A DNA stretch of 64,000 nt from Sphingorhabdus sp. (GTDB taxonomy: Bacteria > Pseudomonadota > Alphaproteobacteria > Sphingomonadales > Sphingomonadaceae): NCBI RefSeq assembly GCF_044239045.1, contig NZ_JBIICD010000008.1, positions 8,311-72,310 on the forward strand, written 5' to 3'. The notes below the pieces were generated by a model. That model did not search any database. It saw nothing but the letters and a program-made list of their open reading frames with translations, and was not told the DNA's origin. Of this stretch, positions 9,545 to 12,179 are shown one piece after another (position 1 is the stretch's first letter; each line of letters opens with the position of its first letter). The position numbers and the translations under genes were made by a program.

Positions 9545-9577
9545 AAAAAAAAGGCCGGTCTTTCGACCAGCCTTTCT
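9545..9577 (-). terminator. Intrinsic terminator of ompA (a second hairpin lies at 9515-9542)
   Basis: Minus strand AAAGGCTGGTC-GAAA-GACCGGCC-T8, between convergent glnD and ompA. Confidence 0.8.
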
Positions 9578-9601
9578 TTTAACCTGAAATCAGATTGGGA
9601 A

Positions 9602-10723
9602 TTACATTCCCGAACCTGGACCATAGGTGACTTCCACGCGACGGTTTTGCGGTTCACGCTCACCATCTGCAGTTTGTACCAATGGTGCAGTTTCACCGAA
9701 TGCTTCGCTGGCAATCGCGCCAGCTGATACGCCCTTGGACTCAAGATACGTACGAACGGTATCGTTACGACGCTGTGAGAGGCCAACATTGTACTTTGCA
9801 GCACCCGACTTATCGGCGTGACCTGCAAGCATAACCTTCGCACTGCCACAGTTCGAATATTGCGCAACGGCATTATCGAGAACCGAAGCCGCGTCTGGAC
9901 GCAGGTTCGATTTATCCCAATCGAAGAACACGATATAAGGACCCGTGTTGCACACTGGCGCAGGTGGCGGTGGTGGCGGTGGTGGGGGTGGTGCCACATA
10001 AGGTGGCGGTGGTGGTGGTGGTGCCACTTCAACAGGCGCAGGTGCACCGCCGAAGTTATAAACAAAGCTACCCATCACGCTGTGCGAACGGAAGCGTGTC
10101 TCTACGGCACGGCCAAGACGATCAACAAGACCGACCTTATCCGCGTTGAAGAAACGATACTTCAGGCCCACATCCCAGTTGTCGCTCAATGGCGCACGAA
10201 CGCCAGCAAGTGCCTGCCATGCAAGACCCGTATCGGAGTCATCGAGGAATGAAGGTGCTGCTAAAGTGGTTTGCGCGTCTACACGAGCAACACCAACGCC
10301 GCCACCAACAAAGCCCTGAAGGCCGTCGTCATCACCGAAATCAAACATCGCATTGACCATGAAGCTCAATGCATTTGCATCACCAGCTACGGCGTAGTTA
10401 CCGCCAGCTACCAAAGTCGTGGCCGTGCCCCGTGTGATCTGAGGTGCGGAGCTGTTGAAACCAGACACATTCGCTTTACGGTATGAGACTTCTGATTCGA
10501 GACGGAAACCGCCAAAATCATATCCGACTACGCCGCCGAAATCATAACCCTTGTCTGTGTCTACTGTTGCCGCATTTTTCTGGGCACCAATATCCAAAGC
10601 AAGGTCTTCTACTATCATGGCACCGCCATCAACTCCGACATACCACTGGTTATCGCGGGCCAAAGCCGGTGACGCCAGAGCAGTAGAAGCGAGTGCCAAA
10701 CTTATGGCTAACTTACGCATCAA
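9602..10723 (-). CDS. ompA: OmpA family protein (beta-barrel, polyproline hinge, peptidoglycan-binding domain)
   Basis: Signal peptide ending ALA, alternating beta-strands, Pro-rich linker, GHAD...YNVGLSQRR, QNRRVE. Confidence 0.93.
   Translation of the reverse strand: MMRKLAISLALASTALASPALARDNQWYVGVDGGAMIVEDLALDIGAQKNAATVDTDKGYDFGGVVGYDFGGFRLESEVSYRKANVSGFNSSAPQITRGTATTLVAGGNYAVAGDANALSFMVNAMFDFGDDDGLQGFVGGGVGVARVDAQTTLAAPSFLDDSDTGLAWQALAGVRAPLSDNWDVGLKYRFFNADKVGLVDRLGRAVETRFRSHSVMGSFVYNFGGAPAPVEVAPPPPPPPYVAPPPPPPPPPPAPVCNTGPYIVFFDWDKSNLRPDAASVLDNAVAQYSNCGSAKVMLAGHADKSGAAKYNVGLSQRRNDTVRTYLESKGVSAGAIASEAFGETAPLVQTADGEREPQNRRVEVTYGPGSGM
9958..10030. repeat. (GGT/GGC)n low-complexity repeat encoding OmpA polyproline runs
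   Basis: Encodes APPPPPPPYVAPPPPPPPPPPAP on the minus strand. Confidence 0.85.
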
Positions 10724-10894: not shown

Positions 10895-11401
10895 TCATGT
10901 TGCTAATATGCCCAATAGCCGGAAATATTGCAAAATTGCCACAAGTGCCGCGCGCGCTTCGCTGTCGACGGCAGTGCCACCGGTTGGATTGGATATCGAA
11001 GGCGCGGTGGTCCATTGGCCTGATATGAACAAGCTATGCCGCCGTGTGGACTTATTCCAAACCCGCATAGCTTCATGGGGAGCGATAAAGCGCCAACTGC
11101 CGCCAATCCAGTAAGCGATTTGACCGGCTTTGTTCGCCCACGCCCCCGCTGGCGTTCCATTAATGATCCAAGATTTGCCAATATCATTGTCGGTTACGGC
11201 GGGTACCGCGGACAAGGCCAGCGCCCATGCGTCACGAAACGCCGGCGAGCGCCGCCGTTCGGCATGGACCGCACTGCTCAACACCCCCGCCGCGCGCGCC
11301 GACGCCGCCACATTCGCCGTCTGCGCCAAATGGTCCAGAAAAAGGCTACGGATTTTCATATTCAACCGCGCATCCGGCACGGGTGTTTTGTTGATGGCCA
11401 T
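10895..11401 (-). pseudogene. Chimeric ORF: small-terminase-like HTH N-terminus fused in frame to a DUF2793 C-terminus (probable GTA/prophage deletion scar)
   Basis: N-half FLDHLAQTANVAASARAAGV...ERRRSPAFRDAWALAL; C-half WIINGTPAGAWANKAGQIAYWIGGSWRFIAPHEAMRVW...PTGGTAVDSEARAAL; ATG at 11401 with AGGAGG SD. Confidence 0.7.
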
Positions 11402-11420
11402 ATCCAGCCCTCCTGAGCGC

Positions 11421-11453
11421 AAAGAAAAAGGGCCGAAGTTTGCGCTTCGACCC
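11421..11453 (-). terminator. Intrinsic terminator in the leader just upstream of the chimeric ORF
   Basis: Minus strand GGGTCGAAG-CGCAAA-CTTCGGCCC-TTTTTCTTT. Confidence 0.75.
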
Positions 11454-11509
11454 CAAAGGTGATGATGAAAGCGAGCCCCAACGCGACTCGCAATTTTCGA
11501 CTATGACAT

Positions 11510-11538
11510 AAATTAAGCTTTTATGGTTACGATGTCAA
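11510..11538 (-). promoter_or_regulatory. Putative sigma70 promoter of the chimeric ORF
   Basis: Minus strand TTGACA-N17-TAATTT in an AT-rich patch. Confidence 0.5.
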
Positions 11539-11627
11539 TATGTTTTTAGCCTATTTGGTTATTACGTAAAGCCCCACACCCACAACAGCATTTCGCATCT
11601 CCCCCGCTTTCGCTAAAGCCCCCCCCC

Positions 11628-12179
11628 ATGTCCCGCATCATCCTGTTCAACAAACCTTATGGCGTCTTGCCGCAATTTACCGACAAGGGGACGGAGGGCT
11701 CGCCGCGGCCGACTTTGTCGCAGTTCGTCGATGTGCCGGGCGTCTATCCGGCGGGGCGGCTCGATATGGACAGTGAGGGGTTGATGCTGTTGACCGATGA
11801 TGGCCGGTTGCAGGCGCGGATTTCGGACCCGAAATATAAAATGGCGAAAAGCTATCTGGTGCAAGTCGAGGGCGATATGTCCGACGATGCGTTGCTGCAG
11901 TTAAGGCGCGGCGTTTCATTGAAGGATGGCCTGACCCTGCCTTGCGCGGCGGAGCGGATTGCCGACCCGATGCTCTGGCCACGCGACCCGCCGATCCGTG
12001 TGCGGCTGTCGGTGCCCGATAGCTGGATCATGCTCACCATTCGTGAAGGCCGCAACCGTCAGGTCCGGCGTATGACCGCCGCCGTTGGGCATCCGACATT
12101 ACGGCTTGTCCGGCGCGCGATTGGCGAATGGACGATGGATGGCCTTGCACCAGGCACTTGGCGCGAGGTTGAGGGCTAA
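11628..12179 (+). CDS. rluE: 23S rRNA pseudouridine synthase, RsuA/RluE family
   Basis: [34 protein letters not shown]. Confidence 0.9.

Follow-up and report, generated by a model that had tools for sequence, protein, structure and literature searches.

The locus under study poses the question of why a promoter should be separated from its own first gene by an intrinsic terminator, and how such an arrangement came to stand ahead of a chimeric open reading frame. Within the window (the whole stretch of 64,000 nucleotides that was analysed), the cassette occupies about 160 bp of the minus strand and reads from a promoter into a leader terminator. As read from the sequence, it is intergenic and its neighbours are divergent: on its 5' side lies an rluE-like gene (11628-12179, plus strand), and on its 3' side a minus-strand open reading frame of 168 codons (10895-11401), in which terS codons 1-64 are fused to the C-terminal part of DUF2793, a deletion scar that now lies behind the leader. 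Since the flanking genes diverge, the cassette is a true 5' leader. The promoter, hairpin, terminator, AGGAGG and ATG that an earlier note had listed were all found on the minus strand, at the positions given below. We conclude with high confidence that the cassette is the promoter and 5' leader of a GTA head-tail operon of the RcGTA type, now an orphaned relic. The explanation as a whole, which includes the mechanism proposed for this leader, is regarded as reasonably probable.

The promoter begins with an upstream box, ATAACCAAATAGG (11550-11562, about -50 to -62), a candidate regulator site that hardly varies among 50 distinct modules or across other genera of the family. It is followed by the A/T-rich tract CTAAAAACATA (11539-11549), which abuts the -35 element on its 5' side, has a counterpart at the same position in nearly all modules and may be inferred to be UP-element-like. 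The -35 element TTGACA (11533-11538) is a full consensus match and does not vary among the 11 leaders identified via terS or the 50 aligned modules. The 17-bp spacer TCGTAACCATAAAAGCT (11516-11532) contains a conserved CGTAAC and is a candidate antiterminator-binding element; its inverted repeat is imperfect here, with a left arm TAACC (11529-11525) and a right arm GCTTA (11518-11514) that runs into the -10. This last element, TAATTT (11510-11515), is weak at 3/6 matches, and its second-position A (-11) is invariant in the module alignment. Our consensus promoter scan does not list this promoter, as the -10 with only 3/6 matches fell under the threshold despite the 6/6 match of the -35 and the 17-bp spacing. 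The -35, the spacing and the A at -11 are invariant across the 50 modules, and the element is a candidate promoter of the sigma-70 type. Transcription is predicted to start near 11502-11504 on the minus strand, within an initially transcribed box, CATAGTCGAAAATTGCGAGTCG (11484-11505, minus strand), that every leader found through terS and each of the 50 modules preserves, the common form of the start-of-transcript box in these modules being CATAGTCGAAAATTGCGAKTCG. Inside CATAGTCGAAAATTGCGAGTCG, at about +6 to +12, lies the -10-like hexamer GAAAAT (11498-11493, minus strand), a candidate site for sigma-dependent pausing and loading.

For the leader RNA, the minimum free energy and centroid structures of RNAfold agreed on the same two hairpins. 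The first, here called the middle hairpin, pairs GCGAGTC (11491-11485) with GGCTCGC (11477-11471) on the minus strand through seven pairs, one of them G.U. The second belongs to the intrinsic terminator (11421-11454, minus strand), which is composed of the stem arm GGGGTCGAAG (11454-11445), the loop CGCAAA, the stem arm CTTCGGCCCT (11438-11429) and the T-tract TTTTTCTTT (11429-11421). It was also reported by a consensus scan, with 10 pairs of which 6 are GC; the stem of 9-10 bp and its 6-nt loop are followed by TTTTTCTTT. The energy of the terminator hairpin was -14.1 kcal/mol, and the T-tract begins 28 nt 5' of the start codon. In between, the Shine-Dalgarno sequence AGGAGG (11414-11409, minus strand) precedes the ATG (11401-11399), an arrangement kept before terS in relatives. 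A T-tract follows the hairpin in the 3' direction on the minus strand only, with none on the plus strand. The terminator thus lies on the strand that the earlier note had assumed, and not on the opposite one. The divergent flanking genes and the minus-only T-tract likewise rule out that it is the 3' end of a neighbouring gene.

In the surrounding 5-kb region, terminator-like matches were not enriched (8 observed against 6.4 expected from shuffles), and the whole leader folds no better than shuffled sequences (z = -1.14), so that no global RNA structure is claimed. As such matches occur at chance frequency in this region, the case beyond chance rests on conservation. A hairpin with a T-tract was present in 34 of 38 distinct leaders, built from 30 different hairpin sequences with a median energy of -16.9 kcal/mol, and in most of these 34 it lies 24-38 nt 5' of the start codon. 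The inner stem pairs alternate between A-T and G-C across lineages; since the 30 hairpins were each folded singly, this support describes the pattern and does not amount to a formal test of covariation. An RNAalifold run on 18 close leaders recovered the terminator with one-sided changes only and 0 compensatory pairs, because these sequences are too similar. In other families of the order, a strong hairpin and T-tract was found just before terS in 4 of 11 loci, where the terminators may belong to a gafA-like gene ending just upstream. The middle hairpin behaved differently. It was rejected as a conserved element, since sister lineages have a mismatched 3' arm, a different and longer hairpin, or none at all; it is lineage-specific and of uncertain function. 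The earlier note had described promoter, hairpin and terminator as retained. This stands in the sense that the element is present and intact, and it fails for the middle hairpin as a conserved part, as it does for a reading of "retained" as "selected" (see below).

Upstream of the terminator, a module of about 95 bp is common to 50 distinct copies and comprises the upstream box, the A/T tract, TTGACA followed by CGTAAC, the spacer inverted repeat, the -10 and the transcript-start box. In the alignment of these modules, 44 columns are at least 90% conserved, and the copy studied here deviates at just one of them: it has C at 11517, where 49 of the 50 modules have G, which further weakens the right arm of the spacer repeat. 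The pattern TTGACAWCGTMAC-N24-32-GAAAAT matched 53 of 120 genomes of the genus, compared with 0 for the reversed control. Other genera of the family have the module as well, likewise ahead of terS and a terminator, and in them the core AATTGCGAGTCGG of the initially transcribed box is kept and directly adjoins the terminator. This box marks the right end of the unit of about 95 bp, which is duplicated in some genomes; on the other side, conserved sequence stops about 62 bp upstream of the start. All 11 leaders identified via terS have the hexamer GAAAAT unchanged, with the variants AAAAGT, AAAACT and AAAAAT in the genus; of the forms in other genera, GAGAAT fits NANNNT, whereas GGGAAT does not in the same register. 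Most modules have an inverted repeat between -35 and -10, such as TAACC-N6-GGTTA, AACCCTA-N6-TAGGGTT, AACTCTA-N6-TAGAGTT or GCC-N5-GGC in relatives. Its arms vary by lineage and are imperfect in several; for a protein operator such variation is unusual unless the protein co-evolves.

The identity of the lost operon was established from relatives, in which the same leader stands directly upstream of an intact terS of 155-200 aa, with upstream neighbour genes that differ among them. A similar leader ahead of terS in GTA-positive relatives, which the earlier note had proposed to look for, therefore exists. In the relative G009, the leader is followed by terS, terL, portal, HK97 capsid, tail tube, DUF2460, baseplate hub, an Rcc01698-like gene and DUF2793, and the OmpA gene after this cluster is the same as the OmpA gene here. 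A search of the present genome (98.8% complete) for genes of the GTA cluster returned only the terS and DUF2793 stubs. About 14 kb have been deleted, so that terS codon 64 is now directly followed by the end portion of the DUF2793 gene. The view that a GTA control region was left intact after loss of its operon is thereby borne out. The GTA capsid gene has been lost in about half of the species of the genus.

We considered whether the leader had been retained by selection and rejected this. Compared with its closest relative, the leader differs at approximately 4-5% of sites (hand count on the alignment), against 17% at rluE third-codon positions. However, the changes specific to this genome amount to 3 in about 140 sites of the leader (counted by eye), 3 in 130 of the dead terS stub and 8 in 112 of the rluE third positions. 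The leader thus changes at the rate of the dead stub, and Fisher's test against the rluE third positions gave p = 0.066. In addition, the deletions of other species have cut or removed the promoter, with breakpoints that lie within the promoter, within the leader or upstream of both. The promoter was cut internally in G020 and G101, the terminator was removed in G051, G075, G001, G091 and G002, and the whole cassette is gone in G067 and G084. What these data suggest is a deletion of recent date that, by the chance position of its breakpoint, missed the leader; the cassette owes its intactness to this recency and not to selection. In total, 26 genomes carry the strict promoter pattern without a GTA capsid gene, and many of them are more than 95% complete.

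With regard to a possible regulator, an intact DUF6456 gene was found in this genome (G000:C21:10518-11021, 165 aa, Pfam DUF6456 E = 1.8e-39). Both gafA and gafZ belong to the DUF6456 family (PMC9765227), which was also detected in a Caulobacter control genome. Here, as in relatives, the gene adjoins a divergent HTH repressor gene, and the 82-bp intergenic region between the two holds a one-mismatch copy of ATAACCAAATAGG in this genome and in relatives. Upstream of the DUF6456 gene lies also GTGATTCG, which resembles the transcript-start box. Genome-wide, the 10-mer core of ATAACCAAATAGG was not enriched (9 observed against 7.4 expected), and the initially transcribed box has a single other match in this genome, with five mismatches, on contig C2. 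Most capsid-less genomes of the genus keep the DUF6456 gene, so its protein may have targets other than this promoter. A GafY-like domain was not found beside the DUF6456 gene, nor elsewhere in the genome by tblastn at better than E = 0.02; the search used eight N-terminal domains of long GafA-like Sphingomonadales proteins and is a weak method, which a divergent GafY could escape.

Taken by analogy with described GTA systems, these parts suggest a promoter-loaded antitermination of the GafZ type as the mechanism in GTA-positive relatives, for which we put our confidence a little above even. RNA polymerase with the housekeeping sigma factor would initiate efficiently, as the A/T tract and the consensus -35 with a weak -10 are expected to form a strong promoter. 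It would next copy the conserved box of about 30 nt that holds the -10-like GAAAAT and, by default, stop 28 nt short of terS, at the intrinsic terminator, so that only an RNA of about 80 nt is made and the lethal particle genes stay off. Once made, the DUF6456 protein, a member of the GafZ/GafA family, would bind the inverted repeat between -35 and -10, load on the polymerase at the promoter-proximal box and carry it through the leader terminator. Its gene would presumably be kept off by the adjoining HTH repressor gene. Overall, such a device would be a lambda-Q-like switch with constitutive initiation, default termination and read-through by an antiterminator. Judged from its sequence, the copy studied here is likely still to yield the short terminated RNA, and polymerases that read through would reach nothing but the fusion ORF.

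Other explanations attribute the decision to a different step. If the hairpin and T-tract were a fixed partial attenuator or a 5' stabiliser, on and off would be set at initiation via the upstream box and the spacer repeat. This is a tentative alternative that we consider unlikely. It would fit the upstream box common to the GTA promoter and the repressor/DUF6456 intergenic region, the inverted copy of this box that several lineages have in the spacer (the two copies bracket the -35, as would suit a repressor) and the description of Rhodobacter GafA as a factor that activates initiation by bringing in RNA polymerase. However, a promoter that combines an A/T tract with a consensus -35 has no need of an activator, and the GTA promoter of Caulobacter became constitutive once it was given a consensus -35. 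Moreover, a canonical strong terminator before the first gene that is kept through complete sequence turnover is hard to explain without gating, and two other GTAs are gated by a terminator that a processive antiterminator overcomes. The decision might instead be taken by the RNA itself, as a riboswitch, a leader-peptide attenuator or a hairpin choice controlled by a protein or sRNA, with termination relieved by refolding. The order of promoter, structured leader, terminator and Shine-Dalgarno sequence is indeed that of a classic attenuator; GTCGAA in the conserved box equals six bases of the terminator 5' arm and could compete for the TTCGGC of the 3' arm, and in the RNAalifold structure the T-tract is paired with the Shine-Dalgarno sequence as well. 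Yet this possible competing pairing is just 6 bp long, and the segment between conserved box and terminator varies from 0 nt (G005, G298) to more than 100 nt of unrelated sequence, with no conserved aptamer-sized fold. A permissive scan against Rfam 15 returned nothing at the gathering score, the best matches being BjrC68 (17.9 bits, cut-off 39) and mmgR (19.9 bits, cut-off 41), and these sub-threshold matches were driven by the terminator. A conserved leader ORF is likewise missing, with an ATG-TCA-TAG mini-ORF confined to the closest clade, and conservation continues 5' of the transcribed region into the promoter, which a factor loaded on DNA would lead one to expect. An RNA-level sensor is therefore judged very unlikely.

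Two further proposals concern the cassette after the loss of its operon. The terminated transcript of about 80 nt could itself be the product, a small regulatory RNA with a GTA-independent role, which would explain its survival in GTA-less genomes. The 26 capsid-less genomes with the strict promoter pattern, the deviation of the present copy at a single conserved column, the compact path from promoter to terminator and the weak, sub-threshold likeness to alphaproteobacterial sRNA models speak for this. Against it stand the independent deletions listed above, which hit the promoter, the terminator (in five genomes) or the entire cassette, and a cassette that has changed no less than the dead terS stub. 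Beyond the conserved box, the transcript differs from lineage to lineage and offers no shared seed region, and the cassette occurs as a single copy in this genome, with no hint of a target. Of all readings considered, we give this one the least credence. Similarly, the orphan cassette and the repressor/DUF6456 pair might still be a working switch in GTA-less cells, with a regulatory RNA of about 80 nt made by default and induction driving the terS::DUF2793 fusion and perhaps the downstream OmpA-family porin gene. It would explain both the intact DUF6456 in most capsid-less genomes and the unblemished promoter modules in many of them, and we nevertheless hold it to be quite improbable. The preferred explanation is thus that of a GTA leader whose operon was gated by antitermination and which is a relic in this genome. 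The copy found here matters less in itself, being a fresh scar, and illustrates how, in a lake lineage undergoing streamlining, the switch persists for some time after its operon has gone. Of more interest is the cassette of the relatives, which is conserved almost base for base across genera and paired with a short GafZ-only regulator. Its consensus -35 predicts that antitermination alone gates particle production, and its size suits direct tests by reporters, in vitro transcription and cryo-EM of the loaded polymerase.

For comparison with known systems, the lambdoid late promoter PR' offers a parallel in logic. There, a constitutive promoter has a Q site between -35 and -10, followed by a sigma-dependent pause and the terminator tR'. 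By default a short terminated RNA is made, and processive antitermination opens the packaging and structural genes, with the terminase first. The cassette as interpreted here would follow this logic, with a -10-like hexamer within the first 15 or so transcribed bases as a candidate for pausing and loading. In contrast to PR', no protein of the Q family takes part, and the element is host-domesticated and controls nothing in this genome.

The RcGTA of Rhodobacter capsulatus (Fogg 2019, PMC6363796; Sherlock & Fogg 2022, PMC9638019) has a homologous structural cluster (g1/terS to g15) and a regulator of the DUF6456 family, GafA, whose C-terminal domain binds the region of -35, -10 and start. GafA is a fused GafY-GafZ that contacts the omega subunit of RNA polymerase, whereas the protein found here is short, GafZ-only and 165 aa long; furthermore, a leader terminator is not mentioned in these two papers (PMC6363796, PMC9638019). 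In the BaGTA of Bartonella, Korotaev et al. (bioRxiv 10.1101/2024.11.20.624540) described a constitutive minimal promoter, PbgtA-K, with a -10-like NANNNT just downstream, a leader terminator that silences the capsid operon and an antiterminator, BrrG, that binds at the promoter, a layout that the present cassette with its candidate elements resembles. However, BaGTA is of independent phage origin, its leader of 864 bp with a weak "L-shaped" terminator compares with about 160 bp in total here, and BrrG is Q21-like and by sequence not DUF6456. A preprint also points to Q21-like features in models of GafZ and GafA.

Finally, the CcGTA of Caulobacter crescentus and its promoter PgtaT (with GafY, GafZ, IHF and terGTA; PMC11150451; Gozzi et al. 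2022, PMC9632790) allow the most direct comparison. Tran & Le (2024, PMC11150451) found that GafZ binds a palindrome between -35 and -10, after which RNA polymerase bypasses terminators; the antitermination by GafYZ that the earlier note had mentioned is correct, and a gene of the GafZ family is present here. Both systems have an RcGTA-related cluster with the small terminase gene first, a protein of the DUF6456 family, an inverted repeat between -35 and -10 and, here by prediction, a terminator to be bypassed for expression and a repressor gene over the activator gene. In Caulobacter this repressor of gafYZ is the LexA-like RogA, and its counterpart here is the divergent HTH repressor beside DUF6456. 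On the other hand, the terminator of CcGTA consists of three 150-bp repeats after gtaT, with a 5' UTR of 251 nt, compared with a single canonical intrinsic terminator in a leader of about 80 nt, placed before terS and not after it. The CcGTA -35 is degenerate (AATCAT) and needs GafY and IHF bound far upstream, in contrast to the TTGACA here, where a GafY-like domain was not found; when the weak -35 of PgtaT was swapped for the consensus, GafY was no longer needed. In sequence, the operators of the two systems are unrelated. As far as the sequences tell, the cassette is a family-wide variant that differs from Caulobacter in its leader terminator, its consensus -35 and the lack of an apparent GafY partner. 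Control of a GTA by termination and antitermination has been shown in two systems only, namely Caulobacter, where the terminator follows the first gene, and Bartonella, where the leader is long. The sphingomonad form is much more compact than either, with promoter, candidate loading box and canonical terminator in about 160 bp.

In the window, the leader occupies the minus strand between two divergent neighbours, an rluE-like pseudouridine synthase gene starting at 11628 on the plus strand and a 168-codon fusion ORF on the minus strand (11401-10895). Read from the sequence, it comprises an upstream box ATAACCAAATAGG (11562-11550), an A/T tract, a -35 element TTGACA (11538-11533), a 17-nt spacer, a -10 element TAATTT (11515-11510), a conserved box CATAGTCGAAAATTGCGAGTCG (11505-11484), a 7-bp middle hairpin GCGAGTC/GGCTCGC (11491-11471) and a terminator GGGGTCGAAG-CGCAAA-CTTCGGCCCT with TTTTTCTTT (11454-11421), followed by AGGAGG (11414-11409) and the ATG at 11401, all on the minus strand. 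The coordinates given in the earlier note were all correct. A consensus scan reported the terminator and missed the promoter because its -10 matches at only 3/6 positions. RNAfold recovered both hairpins, and the leader as a whole folded no better than shuffles. As the flanking genes are divergent, the hairpin and T-tract cannot close another gene and sit within a 5' leader.

Residues 1-64 of the fusion ORF are the N-terminus of the small terminase (TerS) of a gene-transfer agent (GTA), and the C-terminal two-thirds of DUF2793 correspond to residues 72-130. When the N-terminal 67 residues were used as query against 40 relatives, intact terS genes (155-200 aa) turned up in the genus. The same leader precedes them despite differing upstream neighbour genes and therefore travels with terS. 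In the relative G009, the genes behind it are terS, terL, portal, HK97 capsid, tail tube, DUF2460, baseplate hub, Rcc01698-like and DUF2793, and then an OmpA gene and a 920-aa gene, both as in the window; terS to DUF2793 form a complete RcGTA-type cluster. When all the encoded proteins were compared with this genome (98.8% complete) by tblastn, the only matches were two stubs and OmpA. The GTA operon is gone from this genome and the leader is an orphan. The earlier note had proposed an orphaned GTA control element; similar leaders upstream of terS were found in GTA-positive relatives, as in G009 with its full cluster, and together with the two stubs they support the proposal. A second, independent in-frame terS::DUF2793 fusion with other breakpoints (terS residues ~1-42) occurs at locus L059 of G062. 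The OmpA-family gene (10723-9602) has a strong hairpin with a T8 run just downstream of it (9545-9616, minus strand), most simply its terminator; several enterobacterial and Bacteroides sRNA models matched this hairpin weakly, below threshold.

The strict promoter pattern TTGACAWCGTMAC-N24-32-GAAAAT was found in 53/120 genus genomes, in most as a single copy, while its reversed control gave 0 matches in the same 120. Where a genome had a GTA capsid gene and no strict match, the module was there with one or two alterations. Fifty distinct modules align nearly gap-free over ~95 bp from the upstream box to ...GAtTCG, with 44 columns at least 90% conserved, and diverge beyond. A second pattern (upstream box, -35 and CGTNAC), whose control had no matches, extended the module's range to further genera within the family and to a single genome from a second one; in most of twelve loci fetched from these matches, terminator and terS come after the module, and several have the core AATTGCGAGTCGG immediately next to the terminator stem. 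Compared with its closest relative, this genome has a leader that differs at ~4-5% of sites (counted from the alignment) and rluE third-codon positions that differ at 17%. Five genomes carry two module copies 0.5-2.4 kb apart (L076 in G117, L077 in G099, L078 in G132, L079 in G015, L065 in G075). Here, the duplicated unit is the ~95-bp module from the upstream box to ...GATTCGCGG, and unrelated cargo genes (a lipoprotein, various hypothetical proteins) lie between the two copies. Of these copies, the one upstream lacks a terminator and is now oriented towards the cargo, and the one downstream still has terminator and terS. The module resembles a portable promoter unit or a recombination hot spot. 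At L066 (G076), terminator and terS are missing behind module and conserved box; unrelated DNA stands there, with a gene carrying a C5 DNA-methyltransferase-like motif (FAGIGG); the GTA capsid gene of this genome is on another contig.

A clean GC-rich hairpin abutting a T-tract was present in 34/38 distinct leaders (median -16.9 kcal/mol), mostly 24-38 nt before the start codon, and the remaining four had hairpins with interrupted T-tracts or outside the script limits. These 34 leaders hold 30 different hairpin sequences: a GGGC...GCCC base is kept while inner pairs alternate between A-T and G-C, and some stems are unrelated (e.g., GGGGACATGC/GCGTGTCCCC). RNAalifold of 18 close relatives recovered the stem with one-sided changes only, so that formal covariation is weak, and the case for a terminator rests on sequence turnover with structure retained. 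The middle hairpin has a mismatched 3' arm, is replaced by a longer unrelated hairpin or is absent in sister clades, and was rejected as a defining part of the element. RNAalifold also paired the terminator T-tract (UUUCUU) with the Shine-Dalgarno AGGAGG (11409-11429, minus strand) through pairs rich in G.U that 15-18 of the 18 leaders retain; this could mask the terS ribosome-binding site in read-through transcripts.

GTA loss is rampant in the genus, as the capsid gene is present in only 59/120 genomes and missing from 61; 26 genomes have the strict promoter pattern and no capsid. The losses are independent, with left breakpoints within the promoter (G020, G101), directly behind the conserved box (G001, G002, G051, G075, G091), directly behind the terminator (G021), in terS (this genome, G052, G062, G090), in terL (G008, G053, G064) or before the entire cassette (G067, G084). 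With breakpoints so scattered, some in or before the promoter, the promoter is not protected. Locus L033 (G014) keeps terS, terL and portal and has lost the capsid-to-tail genes, L075 (G092) has the leader fused directly to the portal gene, and nearly all loci examined (also L004 in G008, L060 in G064, L053 in G053) retain the last ~20-40 codons of DUF2793 before the OmpA gene. Changes specific to this genome amount to 3/~140 leader sites (counted by eye from the alignment), 3/130 in the dead terS stub and 8/112 rluE third positions. By these counts the deletion is recent, and recency alone explains the intact cassette. At 11517, two bases ahead of the -10 and within the spacer repeat's right arm, one of these changes replaces the G found in 49/50 modules by C and may mark the onset of decay. 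The copy in the window is, on this comparison, a relic.

Homologues of gafA are assigned to Pfam DUF6456 (PMC9765227), which was also detected in our Caulobacter control genome. Outside the window, this genome has a single intact DUF6456 gene (165 aa, G000:C21:10518-11021, E = 1.8e-39), 82 bp from a divergent XRE-type HTH repressor gene; the pair (G000:C21:10518-11667), intact here, recurs in relatives of the genus. The LexA-like repressor RogA keeps the gafYZ operon of Caulobacter off. Other families of the order encode a DUF6456 protein of 250-320 aa, like fused GafA, directly upstream of terS; in this genus the protein is short, a GafY-like domain is missing next to its gene, and a tblastn search of the rest of the genome did not find one. 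The 82-bp intergenic region shares the upstream box (TACCAAATAGG) with the GTA promoter and contains GTGATTCG, resembling the end of its conserved box. Most other capsid-less genomes cross-checked also have the DUF6456 gene intact; G022 has it interrupted by a TGA and G024 lacks it. The regulator's role may extend past the GTA. Outside the window, palindromes related to the upstream box (CTTTCCTRCAAATAACCnnnnnGGTTATTTG) lie at G000:C1:47439-47451, C19:15069-15081 and C21:15007-15019, one beside a tRNA-like sequence and two as identical copies whose flanks are nearly identical, perhaps ahead of rRNA operons; the repressor/DUF6456 intergenic region also contains their half-motif CTTTCCTACAA.

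In Caulobacter, GafZ binds a palindrome between the -35 and -10 of the GTA promoter and travels with RNA polymerase so that terminators are bypassed; the weak -35 requires GafY and IHF, and a consensus -35 makes the promoter constitutive (Tran & Le 2024, PMC11150451). For the Bartonella GTA, the promoter is constitutive and comes with a -10-like NANNNT, the leader has a terminator, the antiterminator is Q21-like, and the authors of that work argue that Q21-like features are common to GafZ and GafA (bioRxiv 10.1101/2024.11.20.624540). Our cassette combines a promoter with A/T tract and consensus -35, which looks constitutive from these features, an inverted repeat in the spacer, a GAAAAT at ~+6 to +12 of the predicted transcript, invariant in 11 leaders found through terS, and a canonical terminator. 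Given the likeness of these parts to Bartonella and the GafZ precedent, we read the cassette as a putative Q-like switch, which would be gated by the short GafZ-type protein alone. A riboswitch or attenuator was weighed against this, but the segment from conserved box to terminator varies from 0 to >100 nt, Rfam returned nothing at threshold, and conservation reaches upstream of the transcript into the promoter. Weak points of the Q-like switch are that the spacer-repeat arms vary by lineage (TAACC/GGTTA, AACCCTA/TAGGGTT, AACTCTA/TAGAGTT, GCC/GGC) and NANNNT is out of register in some genera. With precedents in Caulobacter and Bartonella, antitermination by such a Q-like switch is plausible. 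Holding its four parts within ~160 bp, the family-wide cassette would be a new and compact way of controlling a GTA by antitermination.
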